From a virus, in UHGV virus genome UHGV-0208091: 38,365 nt of DNA; one strand, given 5' to 3'. Below the pieces are notes generated by a model, which was not told the origin of the DNA, searched no databases, and was given only the letters and a program-made list of their open reading frames with translations. Both the position numbers and the translations under genes were made by a program. This document shows, one piece after another, positions 5,800 through 38,364 of the stretch (the stretch's first letter is position 1; every line of letters begins with the position of its first letter).

Positions 5800-6378
5800 T
5801 CAATGCATAATCGGTGCTTCTGGCACACCTTCGATCTGGATGTGTTCGATAAAGCTGTCATGGAGGAGGTTAAGCCCCTCCCGGCCAAGTGCTGATAACC
5901 TGAACCCAAATTCTTCGTCAGCAATAACCATGTCCTGATACATCCGCAGCGCCAGCTGCTGGCCAACCTCTGGCCCATATTTCTCGATTGCCCCCAGCTC
6001 AATATGGTTGGCGAGCGCAAAGCGTTCAGGTCCCGGATAGATGCTAATGGCGCCATGCTTGCTGGAATAGATAACAGCAGTATCAACACCGCCAGTATCA
6101 TTCGGAACGTCGACAGTTCCGTTTTTCTCCAGCTCCTCAGTGATGAACACGGCAGCCAGTAGCCAGCGCCAGAGGATCAACTCTTTTTCGATATTGAGCG
6201 TGATCCAGTTGCTTTCTACCGCTTCCATGATGCAGGCCAGAATTTCCATTCCATCGGCAAGGTGTTTGTCATAGCGACCGTTATCCAGCAGGCGAATTGC
6301 AGCGGAGTAGCCAATCACCCGGTTTCCAGACCGGATCCCTGTTGAGGTTGGTTCCGGGTTAAGCATGTTGTGAAGCAT
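5800..6378 (-). CDS. hypothetical early protein (192 aa)
   Basis: ORF with GAGGTG RBS; operon context. Confidence 0.5.
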   Translation of the reverse strand: MLHNMLNPEPTSTGIRSGNRVIGYSAAIRLLDNGRYDKHLADGMEILACIMEAVESNWITLNIEKELILWRWLLAAVFITEELEKNGTVDVPNDTGGVDTAVIYSSKHGAISIYPGPERFALANHIELGAIEKYGPEVGQQLALRMYQDMVIADEEFGFRLSALGREGLNLLHDSFIEHIQIEGVPEAPIMH

Positions 6379-6790
6379 TGCGCACCTCTGCTGGTTTGCT
6401 GGCCTGAAGTTCTTCGCGCTCTTTCACGTAGCGGTCGTGCATGGCATCCCACTTTTCGCACCACTTTTGCATTTCTCTTTTGCGGGCGAGGATGCGACGC
6501 AGTCGGCGAACGGTGCGCTGGTGGGCGCGGTGGTATTCGTCGGTAGTTTCGCCACGGCGCCACATTTCGTTTCCTTCATGCTCCACAAGGTAATCAGGGT
6601 GGCGTTGCTTAAACCCGGACAAAGCGAAGGTATGCGACGTCAGAAAGTGGGCCAGCCAGCTGATGGCGGTACCGCGGCTAAAGCAACGCTTCATGCGGCC
6701 GTGACGAATAGCGGCGTACAGGTCGCCGACTGGCGTGTGGTGCTTCTGTAATGCCAGATCAATAGCGCTGGCAGTGCGGTTGTCGATCAT
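6359..6790 (-). CDS. hypothetical early protein (143 aa)
   Basis: ORF with GGGAGA RBS. Confidence 0.5.
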   Translation of the reverse strand: MIDNRTASAIDLALQKHHTPVGDLYAAIRHGRMKRCFSRGTAISWLAHFLTSHTFALSGFKQRHPDYLVEHEGNEMWRRGETTDEYHRAHQRTVRRLRRILARKREMQKWCEKWDAMHDRYVKEREELQASKPAEVRNASQHA

Positions 6791-17318: not shown

Positions 17319-17502
17319 CTGCTGCCGCTGTTTTTAGTTCATTCACGGATTTTGTGAATTTAGCCCTCACGTTACTGGCGCTATCTGTTGGCAACTCGCT
17401 GAAGAGGCAGGATACAGCGATAGATAAGATCTCGGTCTCACCTTTGAGTGACTCCAGCTCCTCGACGATTTTCTGTAAAAGTTTCTGATTATCAACGGAC
17501 AT
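17251..17502 (-). CDS. hypothetical protein (83 aa)
   Basis: AAGGAG RBS 8 nt upstream of ATG at 17502. Confidence 0.45.
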   Translation of the reverse strand: MSVDNQKLLQKIVEELESLKGETEILSIAVSCLFSELPTDSASNVRAKFTKSVNELKTAAAASRRRSRRDVYSKALSMMTKPE

Positions 17503-17628
17503 TAAAACGCTCCTTACTTTTTGTGTGAAAACTCAAAGATAAGCGAGCGTTACTTTTTGCAACATCCTGATATTCGATCAGTGCCGCCACCGTGCGGCAT
17601 TTTTATTACCAGAAGTAGGAGAAGAAGC

Positions 17629-17828
17629 ATGTTGACAGTAAAAGTGATGTCGCCTGGCGGCGGCGAAGAAATCCATAGCGGCCTGAGCGTTGGTTTCAAC
17701 CCCAATCAGCAGAGTATCTCAGTGTCTGGAATGGACCAGAACGTGTTCCTGAAGCAGGGGAGGTGGCCTATGTGATGAACGCAAACGGCAAGACCATTTC
17801 CCGTTACGAACACAGGGCCCAGCAGTAG
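17629..17828 (+). pseudogene. small gene apparently split by a -1 frameshift in a G4 run (48-aa ORF 17629-17775, continuing frame to 17828)
   Basis: AGGAG RBS before ATG 17629; adding one G in GGGG at about 17757 gives a single 64-aa ORF ending TAG 17826-17828. Confidence 0.3.
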
Positions 17829-17868
17829 GCATTACAGAAGCTCCTGAGCTAAGGGGCTTCGATAATGC
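17829..17868 (+). repeat. conserved-flank hairpin element copy A: GCATTA-CAG-[GAAGC..14 nt..GCTTC]-GA-TAATGC
   Basis: outer stem GCATTA/TAATGC, 2x2 internal loop, inner 5-bp stem; begins 1 nt after TAG. Confidence 0.6.
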
Positions 17869-17893
17869 TAAACCGAAGCATCTGCCTTAAGTG

Positions 17894-17933
17894 TTATAAA
17901 AAACCCCGTGGAGGAAATCCCAAAGCTACGGGG
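17894..17933 (-). terminator. minus-strand rho-independent terminator in a region with no minus-strand ORF
   Basis: minus-strand stem CCCCGUAG/CCACGGGG followed by UUUUUUAUAA. Confidence 0.5.
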
Positions 17934-18161
17934 TGCTGTACAGCCAGCCAATGACTGATTGTAGCCACGAAGTTGGTTTATTTTCTACTGGTTGAGAATA
18001 AAACTGAGAGCCAGGAAGGCTTGAGAGTGGCTCATCCATAAGCTCACGGGTAGAACGGCAGACTTTGTCATGGCAGAGCAAAGTCATAAGTTAGTTTAGG
18101 TAACATTTCGGATATAACAAGCGTAGCGGGGCATTCCTAATAATGGAGCACCGCAGCTAAA

Positions 18162-18201
18162 GCATTACAGGAGCCATTCTGCCGAGTGGCTTCGATAAGC
18201 T
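18162..18201 (+). repeat. hairpin element copy B (slightly degenerate outer stem): GCATTA-CAG-[GAGCC..12 nt..GGCTTC]-GA-TAAGCT
   Basis: shares GCATTACAG and GGCTTCGATAA with copy A; inner stem sequence differs but pairing preserved. Confidence 0.5.
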
Positions 18202-18225
18202 CCCCACATCGCACAGAGGTAAAAC

Positions 18226-18471
18226 ATGGCAGAGATCACACCGGCAGAACAGATTCGACTGAATCTGCTTTCCACCCTGAACTACGACACCGCGGCCGCT
18301 GCTAAGGCGATTGAGTTCGTCCAGGATAGCCAGCTCAAATATCAGCTGTTCATCCAGCAGTACAGTCGCGTGACAACTGAATCCGAAGTGGTGGCGCGGA
18401 CCATCAAAGCAGTTCAGGAGTCGACCGAGGCGCTGGCGCTGTTTGATACCATCGCAGAACAGGCGAGCTAA
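18226..18471 (+). CDS. hypothetical protein (81 aa) flanked by hairpin elements B and C
   Basis: GAGGT RBS; coding-like. Confidence 0.5.
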   Translation: MAEITPAEQIRLNLLSTLNYDTAAAAKAIEFVQDSQLKYQLFIQQYSRVTTESEVVARTIKAVQESTEALALFDTIAEQAS

Positions 18472-18472
18472 G

Positions 18473-18511
18473 GCATTACAGCAGGCACTCGCTGAGCGCC
18501 TGTGATAATGC
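18473..18511 (+). repeat. hairpin element copy C: GCATTA-CAG-[CAGGC..11 nt..GCCTG]-TGA-TAATGC
   Basis: perfect outer stem, fully substituted but complementary inner stem; begins 2 nt after TAA; ends just before AAGGAG RBS of HNH gene. Confidence 0.6.
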
Positions 18512-18526
18512 TCAAGGAGCGATTAC

Positions 18527-18868
18527 GTGAACAAAGAGCCCCGTATCTACGGCAGCAAGTGGGACCGAGAGCGTCTTATCTTCCTACGTGCGCACCCCTT
18601 GTGCGTCATGTGCCAGGAGCAAGGCAGGGTGACAGCGGCAACGGTGGTTGACCACATCATCCCGCACAAACTGAAAGAGGCTCTGCGCTCTGGTGACAGC
18701 CAGGAAATAGCGAAGGCGCAAAAGCTTTTCTGGAGCCGGAAGAACTGGCAAGGGCTGTGCAAGCAGCACCACGACTCAACGAAGCAGCGAATGGAGAAGC
18801 TTGGCACCGTCATCGGTTGTGATGAGAGCGGAATGCCCCTGGATCCTAACTCACATTGGTTTAAATGA
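18527..18868 (+). CDS. HNH endonuclease (terminase-associated, HK97-type packaging)
   Basis: 113 aa; CxxC...HH...C..HH HNH motifs; GTG start after AAGGAG; directly upstream of cos-like region and TerS. Confidence 0.8.
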   Translation: MNKEPRIYGSKWDRERLIFLRAHPLCVMCQEQGRVTAATVVDHIIPHKLKEALRSGDSQEIAKAQKLFWSRKNWQGLCKQHHDSTKQRMEKLGTVIGCDESGMPLDPNSHWFK

Positions 18869-19050
18869 TATTTAATCTCATTTTTTGCGGGGGAATGATT
18901 GCAAATGAAATCATTTTGAATCAAATGATATCAATTCTCATCTGAGGGGGAGGGGCGGGTCAAAAGTTCAGAACCTCGAACCCAAATGACCGCCGCCAGT
19001 CCTTTTTGTGCACAACCGCGAAATGAAAAGTTTTTTTCCGGGAGGTTCCG
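18864..19050. other. candidate cos/terminase-binding region
   Basis: two about 20-bp direct repeats AAATGATATYWAWTCTCAT (18864-18886, 18923-18945), palindrome AAATGAAATCATTT at 18905-18918, G-rich block GAGGGGGAGGGGCGGG; between HNH and TerS. Confidence 0.3.
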
Positions 19051-19515
19051 ATGGCAGGACGACGCCCGAAACCGACCCACCTCAAAGTGGTTACCGGCAA
19101 CCCGGGCAAACGCAAACTTAACGACAAAGAACCATCGCCAGCGCGAGAAATACCAAGCCCTCCAGAGCACCTCACTGACTGGGGAAAGGTGGCGTGGGGG
19201 AAACTGACCGTGCTGCTGGATGGCATGGGCATTTTAACCATTGCCGATACGCTGGCGCTCGAACGACTCTGCGATATTTACGCCGACATTCTGCAGCTTC
19301 GCCTGACTATTGCTGACGAGGGGCGAACTTACACCGTGAAGACAGAGGGCGGGTTTTTGATTAAGGCTAACCCGGCAGTAGCAATGTTGGCGGATGCAGA
19401 TCGACGTTTTAAAAGTTACCTGGTTGAATTCGGTCTGACTCCGGCCGCCAGAACGAAGGTGAAAGTGGATGGTGGAGAAAAAGAAGAAGACCCGCTCAAC
19501 CAGTTCTTCGGTTGA
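19051..19515 (+). CDS. terminase small subunit, P27 family
   Basis: 154 aa; MAGRRPKPTHLKVVTGNPGKR N-terminus characteristic of P27-family TerS. Confidence 0.8.
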   Translation: MAGRRPKPTHLKVVTGNPGKRKLNDKEPSPAREIPSPPEHLTDWGKVAWGKLTVLLDGMGILTIADTLALERLCDIYADILQLRLTIADEGRTYTVKTEGGFLIKANPAVAMLADADRRFKSYLVEFGLTPAARTKVKVDGGEKEEDPLNQFFG

Positions 19516-33117: not shown

Positions 33118-36100
33118 CGATAAGAATCTACCCTTCCCGGCTCCCCGGAGAACCGCTTGAAACTCATGAGCACGGCAATATTACGCTGCATCAATGGATG
33201 GTCAGAAATGTTCCTGGGTACAGCCAGGACAGATCGCACCCAGTTGCCGTTGAATTAAATGGCCGCACACTTCCTCCCGATGAGTGGCCGCTTTGCCAGT
33301 TGAGCCCTGACAGTGATGTCAGAATTTATCCTGTTCCCTACGGAACGGGGCTGGAAATTGCTGTCTGGGTTTCTGTTGCGATATCAGCTGCCAGCGCAGC
33401 CTACTCGTTGTTCTTCGGGCCGAAAGTCGATCTCGGTGGTTATTCATCGGGGAGTGGTCGCTCACTTGAGCTTAATCCAGCAAAAGCTAACACGGCAAAA
33501 CTGGGTGACCCGATACGTGAGGTGTTTGGTCGATGCCGCATCTATCCTGATTATCTGGTGCAGCCGGTTACCCGTTTTGACCCCGATGATCCAACGCGAA
33601 TGACGGTCGAAATGTTTCTTTGTGTCGGGCAGGGGAGATTTTCGTTTACGGGAGGAGATAAACGGATTGGAGAAACCCCGGCAGCCTCGCTGGGTGATGG
33701 TTTCAGCGATAAGGTGTACCAGCCAGGAGAAGACGTATCTTCTGATCCGCGAAGTGAAAACTGGTTCAACTCGACAGAAGTCGGCGGAACATCAAGCGGA
33801 ACAGGGCTGGATATGGCCCAGACCTCACCTGATTCCGACGATATTATCGCTGACAGCATGACGGTTTCTGGTGCATCCGTAACCTTTACAGGCCTTGATA
33901 CGGATGATGGTGACGATGACGACGAGGACGATAATTCTCTCCCGGACAGCTGGATAACGGGGGCCATAGTTGAAATTAAGGCGCCGACAAATTATCTGAT
34001 CTCCACCTCTTCTGGTTACAGTGTTTTTGCCAGCTCATTGCTTACCGAACTTGCTCCCGTAGCGGGTATGCCGGTGACGCTGAGTTTCAACAGTGTTGAT
34101 TATGACCTCGTCATTGCGTCCTATACCCCGGGTCAGGATGCTGTGCCTGGCGAGGGTGGCAGTGCAGCAAAAATTCAGGCCAGTGCGGCTCCCGTCACCT
34201 ACGATTTTTCGAACAGCTCCAGTACGTTCATGATCACATGGCAGGGCACCACCTATACGGTGTCGCTGGTAGCGAACTACATCTCGATGTCGGGACTGCT
34301 GGCGGCTATCACCGAGGGGCTCACTGGCTCCGGCCTGGTCGCACGGGACAACGGCGGTACCGTACTGATAACCGAGGCGGCCAGTCCGTTCGTTGGTGGG
34401 GCAATCACATCCTCCTCGCTGCCTGCAGCCGTTTTCGGTGATGCCCCGGTTTACACCTCCGGCACGGCATCAACCGGCGGCAGCCCGGCGGTAACGGCAA
34501 ACGTGACGCTTGCGTATAACAGCACTACGGGAACCGCATTCTCGGGCATGCCTGAAGGTGTGCAACGGCTTTCACTGGCTCACCGCGGGAATGAGTACCA
34601 GATCGTCTCTGCCGACGGCACAACGGCAACAGTGGTGCGCCTGGTTAATGGGTCCGTTGATGAGTCGTGGCCGGGATTCACCGCCAGGACGATGATCGAC
34701 TATGAGGCCACTGGTCTTAACGACACGCTGAGCTGGCTGGGGCCGTTCCTGGTTTGCCCTGAAAATGAGACCGTGGATATGTTCGAGGTGAATTTCTCTT
34801 TCCCGAACGGTATCTGCGGCTTTGACAGTAAGGGGAAAAAACGCATTCGCCATGTTGAGTGGGAGATTCAGTATCGCGTCTACGGTTCCGGATCGGGATG
34901 GGTGAGTCACCAGGGCGAGTACGCGCTGAAAAACATCAACGGGTTAGGTTTCACTGAGCGGATCACCCTCAGTTCTCCGGGGCTGGTGGAAGTTCGCTGT
35001 CGTCGACGCAATGAGCAGGGCAGTAATAACTCGCGCGACAATATGTACTGGCAGGCTTTGAGAGGGAGGCTTCTGGCAAGACCGGTATCCTACTCAGGTG
35101 TAACAACCTGGGCAATTACCGTTGAAACCGGAGGGAAGCTGGCGGCACAGTCTGACAGGCGCGTCAGCGTGGTCGCTACCCGTGAATATGAGGGGGGAGG
35201 TAACAGAACTATAAGCGGCGCATTCCGTCATGTGGCAAATAGTCTTGGATTTAATGCTAATCAGCTCGACACCTCTGCAATAAATGCTCTTGAAACTGCC
35301 TGGTGGACGCCGAGGGGAGAATATTTTGACTATGAGGCAAGCAGCGACAGTGCTTCAGCGAAAGATATTTTCGACAAAATCACCGAAGCAGGCATGAGCT
35401 ATTTTTTGCTATCAGATGGGCTCTTATCTGCCGGGCGCGAAGGTATCAAAACCTGGACCGGGATCATCACTCCCCAGGATACGGTAGAGGAAATGCAGAC
35501 ATCATTCAGGGCCCCTTCTGATGATGATTATGATGGTGTTGACGTCACATATATTAATCCGGTTACCTGGGCGGAGGAAATCGTTCAGTGTCGGACAGCT
35601 GATAATCCTGTGCCACGCAAAGTGGAGTCGTACTCGCTGGGCATTGTAATGACTGCAGATCGTGCTTACCGGATAGGTATGCGCAGGCTCATGAAATATC
35701 TGCACCAGCGCAGGACCTATGAATGCACAACTGAGCTTCTTGGCTGGTGCTATCAGTTTGGCGATCACATCATTCTTTCTGATGATATTCCGACGGGTAA
35801 AACAATCAGCTGTCTGATAGAAGGCGTGACATTCGATGATGAAGTTATCACGTTAACAGTCACTGAGCTTCTTGACTGGAGCTATGCTAATCCGCGCTGC
35901 TGGATTCAGTTTCAGGGGGGGCGGCCGTCGACTCGTTTGCTAACGCCGACACGTGTCGATGACTTCACCCTTACTATACCGTACAACGACGACCTGCACC
36001 CGGAAGACTGGATTATGGATGATCCGGATGTTGAATTACCTCGCCTGTTGTTTTGTGACAGTGAGAAGGGGGCGCGGCACGGTATCGTTCAGGAAATTGT

Positions 36101-36258: not shown

Positions 36259-38364
36259 ATGGCCAACATCGAAAAACTTGGCTCGTCATCACCAGAGGTA
36301 TTGCTTAAGAATGCAACTAACCTCGATAAGTTAGTCAATGGCCGGGAATCGGAATCATTACCTGATCGCTTTGGTGTACTGCGCAAAACCTGGCACGGCA
36401 TGGAGATGATCTTCAACCGTTTTATAGACTACATCACTGGTCGCGGCGAGCAGGCAGTTGCAGCTATCGGCTGGCAGGAGCTTGGCAACTGGGCTGTTGG
36501 TCTGGCTGTAGATAATCGCCAGCAGATCGTCTACTACAATGGCTCCTGGTACAAATACCTTGGTGAGCTTGAACACGTCATTGCCGGAGATTCTCCTGAG
36601 AACGATGGCGGTGTGTGGTCGGCTGCAAACCCCACAGGGAAATGGTCGAACATCGGTGACGCGGCTCTTCGCTCAAACCTGGGTTCAGGCGAAGAGGGGG
36701 TGGGGGATGCGTTACTTGCTGTCAAACAACCATACACAGGGGCTGTAGCCAGGACTCAGCACGACAAAAACTGGGACAGTATTAACCTTCTGGATTTTGT
36801 ATACGCCACGGACGTTGTAGATGGTTTTGTTGATTATGGTCTTGGGCTTAACCGCGCCATTGCCGCTATGAGTTCTTTAGGTTCAACCAGCGTAGAGCAT
36901 ATTCCCAGACGCAGAATCAATCTCCCCGCAGGTCTGCTGCACATCAAAACGAAAGTCGAACTTTCTTTTGGCCCCTTCGCAATGTGCGGCGAGGGGATAT
37001 TCCAGACCATCTTTGCTATACATCCCAGCGCAGCTTCAGATGATGATTATCTGTTTGACTTCAGCTCAGCCGGCTGGGATTCAACAGGAAGGGTCAGAAT
37101 ATCCGAACTTTATCTGAGTAACTTCTCAGTGCTTGGGGAAACTGCGAGCTGGATTCGTAAAAGAATCTTTAAATTCTACGGCGTCGGCTGGGATTTTGCG
37201 ATAGAGAACGTGCAGGTCTGGTCGCCTCCACTTTCGTCATTCGATATGACGGATGTCATGGACGGGGTATTTAATCAGGTGAGGATAAACTCCGGAGGCC
37301 GGTTCCTCACTGCAGGTTCAGAAGTAACGCATCAGATTAACATGCTGAATCAGTATGATAACTGTAATGCAATAAGATACATGAGCTGCCATTTTGAAAA
37401 CAACTATTCAGGCGTCTCTTATATTCGTGGTGGGTCAAACAACATTCTCTTTGGCGGAATGTGTAAATTTGAAAATAACAGCAGAAACAACCTTGTTCCT
37501 GTTAACCAGATTTACGGGTCCACCTCAGATAGTGTCAAATTTGAAAATATCTTCGTAAGCCACCCGGCCCATATCACAGTTTACTGGCTGGACAGCAATG
37601 GCCGCCACGTATCAATTCGCGGAGGCTCACTTATGAGCCCGTCGGATTTAGGTGGATATACCGGTCTGAGGTGGTTCCGCATCCACCGTACAAACTGGGC
37701 GAGTGCGACTGCGTGCGTTCAGCTGGTCGCTGATATTGACATGATGCATGTGGACGGGTACGGATATAACGGGGCGAATCAGCTCTCACCGTTTGATTTT
37801 GAGGGCGAGGTTATTTTCCGGGCAAAGGCTATTCGCCTGGCGCGACCAAATACCTTCATGTACATCAACTGGAACTGCAAAATTGATATTGAAAATCTGA
37901 CGCTGTTAGGTGCTGTTACCAGCGATTATCAGACCTCACTGTTTAATGTTGCCGCGTCATCAGTAAAGGCAGACGTAAACGTTGATAAATATAACGGCAG
38001 CGTTGTTGGAACTGTTTATGTCAATCCAGCAATGACCACCGCATCGCGCCGGCAGTCAATAATCAATGTGAGGGGTAAATCACTTCAGTCTTCATCACTG
38101 ACGCTCTCTGAGGGTACAGACCCTCTTGGTTATGATGAGTCCTGGACGTGGAATGCCTCGGGAAATGTAGCCAACATCGGATACTGCCATACAGGGAAGC
38201 GAATGGTTGTCAGATGTGCAGACACATCAAATTGCCTGATTGTCGGCGGTAATATTTTCCTTCCGGGTGGTGCGGTAACGGCTGCATGTACGATAACCCT
38301 GATGGCGATGAACACATCGTTCCGTCAGGGCTGGGTCGAAGTTTCACGGGTAGCAGGAGTCTAA
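36259..38364 (+). CDS. tailspike: N-terminal anchor (aa 1-141) + C-terminal right-handed beta-helix enzymatic domain (orientation 1 of invertible segment)
   Basis: 701 aa; beta-helix-like Asn/Gly-rich repeats; contains crossover site at codons 137-145. Confidence 0.8.
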   Translation: MANIEKLGSSSPEVLLKNATNLDKLVNGRESESLPDRFGVLRKTWHGMEMIFNRFIDYITGRGEQAVAAIGWQELGNWAVGLAVDNRQQIVYYNGSWYKYLGELEHVIAGDSPENDGGVWSAANPTGKWSNIGDAALRSNLGSGEEGVGDALLAVKQPYTGAVARTQHDKNWDSINLLDFVYATDVVDGFVDYGLGLNRAIAAMSSLGSTSVEHIPRRRINLPAGLLHIKTKVELSFGPFAMCGEGIFQTIFAIHPSAASDDDYLFDFSSAGWDSTGRVRISELYLSNFSVLGETASWIRKRIFKFYGVGWDFAIENVQVWSPPLSSFDMTDVMDGVFNQVRINSGGRFLTAGSEVTHQINMLNQYDNCNAIRYMSCHFENNYSGVSYIRGGSNNILFGGMCKFENNSRNNLVPVNQIYGSTSDSVKFENIFVSHPAHITVYWLDSNGRHVSIRGGSLMSPSDLGGYTGLRWFRIHRTNWASATACVQLVADIDMMHVDGYGYNGANQLSPFDFEGEVIFRAKAIRLARPNTFMYINWNCKIDIENLTLLGAVTSDYQTSLFNVAASSVKADVNVDKYNGSVVGTVYVNPAMTTASRRQSIINVRGKSLQSSSLTLSEGTDPLGYDESWTWNASGNVANIGYCHTGKRMVVRCADTSNCLIVGGNIFLPGGAVTAACTITLMAMNTSFRQGWVEVSRVAGV
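36668..36693. other. gix/hix-like crossover site (left), TTCGCTCAAACC-TG-GGTTCAGGCGAA, inverted relative to 2225-2250
   Basis: 24/26 identical to reverse complement of 2225-2250, identical central dinucleotide, in identical codon phase. Confidence 0.8.

Follow-up and report, generated by a model that had tools for sequence, protein, structure and literature searches.

Three short hairpins in the late region of a Klebsiella prophage belong to a real, widespread and apparently undescribed family of structured elements, which is kept by selection on the folded sense strand of the late genes and which marks, at the DNA level, the edges of exchangeable gene cassettes. The hairpins, named A, B and C, lie in the UHGV virus genome UHGV-0208091, analysed here as one stretch of 38,365 nucleotides (the window). 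The source DNA is a Klebsiella prophage, with 99.9% identity to phage ST13-OXA48phi12.2 over the 1.6 kb that we queried (17500-19100). By analogy with the early sites of phage T7, R1.1 above all, we propose that A, B and C may be intercistronic RNase III processing or stability signals on the late mRNA. This proposal is tentative and falls somewhat short of an even chance; that the hairpins act as RNA-level cis elements of some kind is considerably more likely.

On the plus strand, the late region of the window runs from antiterminator, holin, lysozyme and spanin-like genes, through a series of small open reading frames (ORFs), to the genes of an HNH endonuclease, a P27-type small terminase, the large terminase and the portal. 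The three hairpins are placed among about 1 kb of small accessory genes between the lysis and the DNA-packaging genes, directly upstream of the HNH gene (free energies in kcal/mol, z-scores relative to shuffles):

17829-17868, plus strand: hairpin A, 40 nt, GCAUUA / CA / GAAGCUCCU-loop-AGGGGCUUC / GA / UAAUGC; free energy -24.5, z -5.15; covariance model 54.8 bits, E 4.8e-11
18162-18200, plus strand: hairpin B, 39 nt, bounding the DUF2560 module on its 5' side and lacking 1 nt in the 3' basal arm; free energy -19.3, z -4.5; covariance model 48.3 bits
18473-18511, plus strand: hairpin C, 39 nt, starting 1 nt past the DUF2560 stop codon and forming the 3' boundary of the DUF2560 module; free energy -23.2, z -4.8; covariance model 56.6 bits, E 1.9e-11

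The three copies share one shape, made of a basal helix of 6-7 bp (GCAUUA/UAAUGC), a 2x2 internal loop with CA opposite GA, an apical helix of 9-10 bp and a small loop. The apical helices differ in sequence from copy to copy and yet keep their pairing. With free energies between -19 and -24.5 kcal/mol, their stability was matched by none of 200 dinucleotide shuffles. Model R1, a covariance model trained on 73 unique copies of the family, finds exactly three sites in the window, namely A, B and C, all on the plus strand and with E-values from about 2e-11 to 2e-9; the only further matches at E < 0.8 are the reverse complements of these three. Three hairpins of the 40-nt type, as the initial annotation had placed them on this strand, are therefore present, with some changes of detail. 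The inner stem that it had described exists but measures 9-10 bp and not 5-6 bp, and its CAG / YGA internal loop is reduced to a 2x2 CA/GA loop, since a pair forms between the G in CAG and the Y in YGA. Its limits were right for A and C, whereas B ends at 18200 and not at 18201, and has a deletion in the 3' arm: this arm reads GATAAGC instead of GATAATGC, having lost one T relative to the otherwise identical locus L101. Hairpin A adjoins the TAG stop codon (17826-17828) of a 65-residue ORF. Hairpin C begins 1 nt after the DUF2560 stop codon and ends just before the ribosome-binding site of the HNH gene, as had been claimed, with 2 nt between its end and the AAGGAG at 18514-18519. The sequence likewise bears out that no U-tract follows A, B or C. 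An isolated half-element at 421-429, which had been grouped with the hairpins, does not belong to the family, as it lacks a 3' arm and a stem and is not matched by the model. Exact GCATTACAG 9-mers outside a hairpin occur there (plus strand), at 6746-6754 (minus strand) and at 37362-37370 (minus strand), all of them without structure, partner arm or model match; in total there are six exact copies of this 9-mer in 77 kb (both strands) against about 0.3 expected.

The family was collected in two ways. An exact-pattern scan of viral contigs gave more than 118 loci, which is a lower bound, and 133 pattern matches among those listed; the canonical fold is found in 112 of these 133, corresponding to 73 unique sequences. 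A second sample was gathered via the DUF2560 protein instead of the DNA motif, and comprises 80 loci, with 70 sequences scored. As a negative control we ran the loosened pattern CATTACAGN{18,30}GATAATG over genome contigs, where none of the 120 listed chance matches, from unrelated, AT-rich bacterial genomes, has the canonical fold.

Across the 73 unique copies, standard pairs occupy 97.9% of the cells of the alignment, compared with 85.5% in shuffles and 34-47% when the partners are slid, and not one of 500 shuffles did as well. Double-sided changes amount to 130 cells, in seven of the ten apical pairs. In the DUF2560-seeded sample 96.5% of the cells are paired and double changes occur at nine pairs; unpaired cells make up 2-3.5% in the two samples. 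Compensatory change had been taken, from three copies, as a sign of selection on single-strand secondary structure, and the 73 copies with their DUF2560-seeded replicate confirm it far more strongly than three copies could. The geometry is also conserved: the apical helix has 9-10 bp in 68 of the 73 copies, the loop 3 nt in 47 and the whole hairpin 39 nt in 51 (range 38-44 nt), and the 2x2 CA/GA loop is invariant across the family, symmetric and free of bulged bases. The basal helix, by contrast with the apical one, is conserved in sequence and does not covary. Its three loop-proximal pairs (U-A, U-A, A-U) are essentially invariant and the outer three accept wobble changes, although rare variants carry a double compensatory change, for example GUAUUG/CAAUAC in L102. 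One copy (L112, 52-90, minus strand of the locus) has a 5' arm that is the exact complement of its 3' arm (GCATTATCACAGG...CCTGTGATAATGT), so that the internal loop is closed, as if it had arisen through templated repair within the hairpin.

The same copies indicate which strand folds. Within the apical helix, G.U pairs outnumber A.C pairs by 122 to 8, and the plus-strand fold is the more stable one in 64 of 73 copies, both of which point to the sense strand of the late genes as the folding strand. The initial annotation had left the choice between RNA and single-stranded DNA; a role in RNA processing or stability is the alternative that gains support, from this asymmetry, from the orientation and intercistronic position of the hairpins and from a match to the distal box of RNase III substrates, all described below.

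Each locus carries one to four copies, and their orientation is never mixed within a locus. All 133 pattern-listed copies are co-oriented with the downstream terminase genes, even beside antisense cargo: the local ORFs lie mostly on the same strand for 121 of them, and for the other 12 the antisense cargo is adjacent and the large terminase genes downstream are still co-oriented. In the 80 protein-seeded loci the primary matches are all on the plus strand, the only minus-strand match being the reverse complement of a plus-strand one. The hairpins are always found in the lysis-packaging interval, with endolysins, holins and spanins of several unrelated types within 3 kb upstream, and small and large terminases of several types (including Nu1-like and P27-like ones) plus HNH genes downstream. 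Directly beside the hairpins, 31 protein clusters are represented upstream and 43 downstream.

The taxonomic range was taken from phage, plasmid and E. coli collections. Hosts are Enterobacterales only (Klebsiella, Escherichia, Salmonella, Pectobacterium, Edwardsiella, Rahnella, Citrobacter and Kosakonia), and named carriers include phi80, ST64B, phiP27, mEp390, cdtI, Pectobacterium ZF40 and Edwardsiella EPP-1. The phi80 copy directly follows rha and is unannotated in a record that does annotate terminators and promoters. A hairpin 100% identical to the phi80/Klebsiella type is also present at 35845-35883 of OM284015.1 ('Elizabethkingia phage EKP1'); the host assignment of this record looks doubtful, all other hosts being Enterobacterales. 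The hairpin occurs in 190 plasmid records, for the most part from Klebsiella. Of 5426 complete E. coli genomes 233 are positive, and a positive genome has one or two such places (median 1). There are no copies in the K-12 prophages DLP12 and Qin or in the late region of lambda between Q and cos, which is probably why the family has so far gone undescribed, and which also makes the published K-12 RNase III maps unusable for our purpose. Rfam 15 gave no match at gathering thresholds for the window and none at E up to 10 for 17500-19100, and a literature search found no description of the family; a preprint on the Pas small RNA turned out to have no bearing on it.

Such a distribution bears on whether the family could be a selfish or neutral small palindromic repeat, like REP or MITE sequences, that spreads in phage intergenic DNA without a function for the phage. 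A size of about 39 nt, similar to that of REP, the presence of up to four copies per locus and the dispensability of the hairpins in many orthologous contexts would agree with this idea. We nevertheless consider it very improbable, given the low number of places per positive E. coli genome, the absence from DLP12, Qin and the lambda late region, the single orientation with never an inverted pair, the confinement to one genomic interval, the strong purifying pattern seen in compensatory changes and a retained wobble pair, and the lack of any associated RAYT or transposase. Membership in the REP/BIME class itself was rejected on copy number, unmixed orientation and restriction to the lysis-terminase interval.

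The position of the hairpins relative to genes is also regular. In 65 of 123 distinct contexts the hairpin starts between -1 and +3 nt from a same-strand stop codon, and the next start codon downstream is most often found at 20-29 nt. A transcription signal at this place, be it a terminator, pause or attenuator hairpin or a promoter using GATAAT as its -10 element, is extremely unlikely. The hairpins are stable enough (-19 to -24 kcal/mol), GATAAT is like a -10 hexamer, the C type has TGTGATAAT and some copies come directly after the T-run of a terminator; but a T-run follows neither A, B or C nor any of the 73 unique copies, and a terminator scan makes no call. The TTACAG-GATAAT spacing of about 21 nt falls outside the sigma-70 range, a promoter scan is empty, and a promoter has no need of a covarying stem.

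In the reading that we favour, these cis-acting hairpins, formed by the sense strand of the late transcript under Q antitermination, would be cleaved there by host RNase III. The sequence requirements of E. coli RNase III have been described on the minimal substrate uR1.1 by Pertzev and Nicholson (PMC1540722). They include a canonical distal box UA/UG, with a stringent need for U.G at the second position, and a proximal box of 4 bp, where CG/GC at position 2 prevents binding, cutting uR1.1 reactivity about 16-fold, while GC beside the cut blocks catalysis (PMC1540722). The helix between cut and loop has to be at least 11 bp, and internal loops confine cleavage to a single strand, with a protective hairpin left at the 3' end (PMC1540722).

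The family resembles this substrate at several points. In the 10-bp apical helix, the putative distal box consists of U-A over U.G, beneath the closing C-G. The U-A is present in 72 of 73 copies and the U.G in 53 of 73 (otherwise C-G in 14 and U-A in 4), with 69/70 and 47/70 in the second sample. This box lies 8 bp above the internal-loop A.G, which is the spacing of U15:G24 to position 7 in uR1.1. The invariant CA/GA loop is found at the equivalent of proximal-box position 4 and the pairs beneath it are all A/U; together, the loop and these invariant pairs would form the cleavage region. On two other points the agreement is mixed. As for length, the A.G position brings the apical helix to 11 stacked positions, and some contexts extend the base. 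The equivalent of proximal-box position 2 (columns 10-35) is A-U in 23 copies, G.U in 18, C-G in 26 and G-C in 3, hairpin A having A-U and hairpin B G.U, both free of the antideterminant. By the register of uR1.1, the predicted cut would fall between GAU and AAUGC on the 3' side, with a possible second cut between GCAUUAC and AG on the 5' side. The candidate 3'-side cuts are:

17863/17864, plus strand: predicted cut in hairpin A
18196/18197, plus strand: predicted cut in hairpin B
18506/18507, plus strand: predicted cut in hairpin C

Cleavage at these places would leave a 3' hairpin on the cistron upstream and give the one downstream a defined 5' end, about 20-30 nt ahead of its start codon, and the accessory cassettes between the lysis and packaging genes could become units insulated at the RNA level.

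Several observations weigh against RNase III. A C-G or G-C pair occupies the equivalent of proximal-box position 2 in 29 of the 73 copies (about 40%), including hairpin C (C-G). The basal helix has just 6-7 bp, and the whole helix, with about 18-19 bp, is slightly under two turns. We folded the T7 early intergenic regions (R0.3, R0.5, R1, R1.1 and R1.3) for comparison: the best match of model R1 in the T7 genome is the R1.1 stem, at a level that is not significant (10.4 bits, E = 1.3), and, reciprocally, a model built from the five T7 early sites finds none of A, B and C at E up to 10, which lowers our confidence in RNase III. With no significant covariance-model link in either direction, the connection to T7 rests on a 5-bp motif and on geometry, and not on detectable homology. 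Cellular RNase III sites generally have no strong box consensus (PMC5371410), so the box match is suggestive and not diagnostic. The hairpins are dispensable, in that orthologous genes occur without them. Finally, the near-invariant basal sequence and the confinement to the lysis-terminase interval are not obviously explained by RNase III.

Some of these points would be accommodated if the hairpin on the late transcript had a reader other than RNase III. Candidate roles are a block to 3'-5' exonucleases and to 5'-end-dependent RNase E, a site bound by an RNA-binding protein of phage or host through the invariant UUA-CA-G / Y-GA-UAA core and the U.G wobble, or a translational insulator just after stop codons. 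The evidence of structure, strand, orientation and position supports such a reader equally well, the near-invariant base and internal loop point to sequence-specific recognition of a kind that is not normally that of RNase III, and the empty reciprocal T7 search agrees with it. On the other hand, no candidate partner protein co-occurs with the hairpins, given the 31 upstream and 43 downstream clusters and the unrelated types of lysis and terminase genes, and a plain exonuclease barrier would need neither a conserved internal loop nor a conserved wobble pair. We regard a reader of this sort as possible, if rather unlikely.

Among the neighbours, DUF2560 is the commonest but is found in only 37 of 102 hairpin loci; as it is missing from most of them, it was ruled out as a trans-acting partner. 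Conversely, among 80 DUF2560 loci a full upstream hairpin is present in about 54 and a downstream hairpin in about 60, so that about a quarter to a third have no hairpin on one side or the other. The HNH genes of phages phi12.4 and phi17.2, which are 90% identical to that of the window, are also free of a hairpin upstream. The existence of hairpin-free orthologues of both genes indicates that the hairpin is neither bound to one gene nor essential for its neighbours. A coordinating role in the expression of the HNH and small terminase genes, which the initial annotation had suggested, is thus not supported. Flanking genes preserved where the elements are gone had been named there as the observation that would tell against them; this observation has now been made, and it speaks against an essential role in the expression of flanking genes and not against the existence of a selected structure.

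The hairpins also coincide with the limits of homology between phages. Megablast breakpoints against other phages fall at window positions 18162, 18512 and 18528. In an alignment of four phages, homology extends from the first base of hairpin B to the last bases of hairpin C; on either side of this segment the alignment shows three unrelated sequences. Over unique contexts (29 downstream, 17 upstream), column identity drops from 1.0 in GATAATG to 0.33-0.45 within three bases. The same hairpin sequence is found after rha in phi80 and after DUF2560 in Klebsiella phages, and the slot between A and B holds in phage phi7.2 another minus-strand gene than in the window. The breaks of homology at the hairpin edges show that the hairpins also mark module junctions; as a pattern, whatever the mechanism, they lie at the edges of exchangeable cassettes. 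This goes beyond the initial annotation, and it is the property expected of lambdoid module boundaries, that is, a short conserved sequence exactly at the junctions of non-homologous modules. Since a sequence of about 39 nt recurs between unrelated genes in many phages, it may also serve as a short homology for module exchange; an identical 39-nt copy in two phages is about as long as the homologies used in recombineering with phage recombinases.

On the plus strand at 17580-17601, within the late operon and upstream of the 65-residue ORF, there is an intrinsic-terminator-like hairpin (AGTGCCGCCACCGTGCGGCATT then TTTAT). In nine other contigs this terminator is fused straight to the 3' half of hairpin B (TTCGATAATGC) and everything between them is deleted; these fusions are deletions with one end inside the hairpin.

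Given these junctions, we asked how far a DNA-level recombination element could account for the family, either the folded single strand or the shared 39-bp sequence acting as a cassette-exchange site, through Rad52-type short-homology recombination or an integron-like structure-specific enzyme, with the hairpin kept for that purpose. The homology limits at B and C, the three-base fall in identity, the breakpoints, the same hairpin after different genes, the deletion variants and the varying cargo between A and B all speak for it. A shared homology, however, requires no hairpin, no compensation, no wobble pair, no constant helix length and no orientation fixed by transcription. No recombinase gene is associated with the hairpins and the defining features of attC are missing; chimeric, mispaired hairpins are rare, as the few unpaired cells show, and a coincidence with junctions is to be expected of any conserved intergenic island in mosaic genomes. 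We therefore judge that the hairpin is unlikely to be kept for recombination. In a bolder form of this idea, the hairpins would be dedicated exchange sites whose folded single strand, with a conserved base and internal loop and a free inner stem, is recognised by a structure-specific recombination activity of phage or host, the lysis-packaging interval of temperate enterobacterial phages would be an integron-like platform for accessory genes, and RNA processing would be secondary; this we hold to be decidedly improbable.

The genes and other features around the hairpins are as follows:

17630-17828, plus strand: upstream cassette gene, phrog_3909, whose stop codon adjoins hairpin A
17869-18161, minus strand: cargo between A and B, a 53-residue ORF (17926-18087) and then a terminator-like hairpin with T6 (about 17895-17936), both on the minus strand
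18201-18225, plus strand: leader CUCCCCACAUCGCACAGAGGUAAAAC, 25 nt, from hairpin B to the DUF2560 start codon
18226-18471, plus strand: DUF2560 gene, 81 residues, PF10834, phrog_571, the most frequent but optional hairpin neighbour
18527-18868, plus strand: HNH endonuclease gene
from 19051, plus strand: P27-type small terminase gene
from 19469, plus strand: large terminase gene

The phrog_3909 ORF of 65 residues is intact in ST13-OXA48phi12.2; in the window its frame is shifted by the loss of 1 nt from a G run near 17757, which reflects either a pseudogene or a homopolymer sequencing error. For the 53-residue ORF, Pfam and PHROG give no match; the segment separating A from B has the appearance of a small antisense moron or of a small RNA gene. 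The record of Klebsiella phage KP-Rio/2015 begins at the equivalent of window position 18032. The leader downstream of hairpin B (CUCCCCACAUCGCACAGAGGUAA in the window, L002, L003 and L101) is nearly unchanged although the DUF2560 coding sequence is only about 75% identical, which suggests that 18201-18225 is a regulatory 5' untranslated region in its own right. Between the HNH and small terminase genes (18848-19000), a pair of 34-nt direct repeats with the core AAATGATAT is found at 18848-18881 and 18908-18941, followed downstream by GGGGGAGGGGCGGGTCAAA and GACCGCCGCC, both of which match a region of phiP27 with an annotated cos. This segment probably represents cos together with the region of terminase binding. 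The record of phage P7641 stops at the equivalent of window position 18868.

If the hairpins are indeed RNase III signals, punctuation of mRNA in the style of T7 would not be confined to virulent relatives of T7 but common in the late operons of temperate phages of Klebsiella, E. coli and Salmonella, specifically around accessory ('moron') genes, which often bear traits that matter to the host. With each cassette would come an RNA insulator, as nature's equivalent of the insulators made from RNase III sites or ribozymes in synthetic operons, and this would explain how foreign genes can enter a late operon without disturbing their neighbours. The exact match with homology breakpoints makes the hairpins a concrete, testable candidate for the long-postulated 'linker' sequences of modular phage evolution, and model R1 could serve as a marker of module edges in prophage annotation, where neither Rfam nor the phi80 record has the family at present.

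Among known elements, the attC sites of integrons share with the family an imperfect hairpin with conserved outer arms, an unpaired spacer and a variable interior, which is strand-specific and is placed after the stop codon of a cassette, at the cassette boundary. An attC-like recombination hairpin had been listed among the possible roles and was rejected on comparison. The arms, GCATTAC ... GATAATGC, do not follow the RYYYAAC/GTTRRRY consensus, with misfits at positions 3 and 5 of R'' and throughout R'; there are no extrahelical bases; and 39 nt is too short when compared with 57-141 nt. The DUF2560 module is moreover flanked by a hairpin on both sides, in place of one per cassette. No integron integrase was seen among the neighbours within 3 kb, which are lysis and terminase genes, and no search aimed at intI was made. 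Resemblances to dif/XerCD and IS200/IS605 sites also failed when the actual sequences were compared.

REP/BIME elements are transcribed palindromes of about 35-40 nt after stop codons that stabilise the upstream mRNA against 3' exonucleases. They are similar to the hairpins in size and in placement after stop codons. REPs, however, exist in hundreds of chromosomal copies, in both orientations, and are mobilised by RAYT transposases, whereas the hairpins are present in one to four copies per phage, in one orientation and at one type of locus. The sib retroregulator of lambda is a hairpin just downstream of a gene; host RNase III, by cutting it, decides what becomes of the message upstream, and it forms only on transcripts that read through by antitermination. 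Location downstream of a gene is common to both and so, by prediction, is RNase III cleavage, but sib is a single site in the int region that overlaps a terminator and belongs to no repeated family, and lambda has no family copy between Q and cos.

The closest likeness is to the early sites of T7, which are likewise hairpins between cistrons, on a long polycistronic transcript of a phage with an enterobacterial host. The upper stem of R1.1, AAGGUCAUUC-GCAA-GAGUGGCCUU, and the family consensus, G-N-A-G-S-C-A-U-U-C ... G-A-G-U-G-S-C-U-N-Y, have CAUUC/GAGUG in common. Both have an upper helix of 9-10 bp topped by C-G, U-A, U.G and A-U, an internal loop where the cut is predicted, at the same distance from the distal box, and a GAU motif on the 3' side. 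When the uR1.1 numbering is laid on the T7 sequence, the cut falls after T7 nt 5887, which we take to be the published R1.1 site. R0.5, R1, R1.1 and R1.3 are similarly placed, past a stop codon and 20-35 nt ahead of the next start; the sites within one genome resemble each other in T7 as they do here, and the T7 early RNase III sites are dispensable for growth. The differences are that the internal loops of T7 are larger and asymmetric whereas that of the family is a symmetric 2x2, that the basal helix of the family is shorter (6-7 bp) and has another, near-invariant sequence, and that the proximal-box equivalents differ, with the CG/GC antideterminant in about 40% of the family. The family, furthermore, lies in the late operon of temperate phages, in the lysis-packaging interval only, where cleavage is predicted.

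At the DNA level, the nearest parallel is with the 'boundary' or 'linker' sequences of lambdoid phages, which reportedly go back to the modular theory of Susskind and Botstein and are said to figure in the HK620 and HK97 genome papers. The hairpins are like them in being short conserved sequences at the exact junction of exchangeable modules; they differ in that the junction is a structured element under strand-specific selection, not a mere patch of DNA homology. The boundary-sequence concept of phage mosaicism is mentioned in PMC3233612 and PMC3029335. On balance, the hairpin family fits best as a new member among the RNase III-type intercistronic hairpins of phages, and has the additional, testable property of delimiting mosaic modules.

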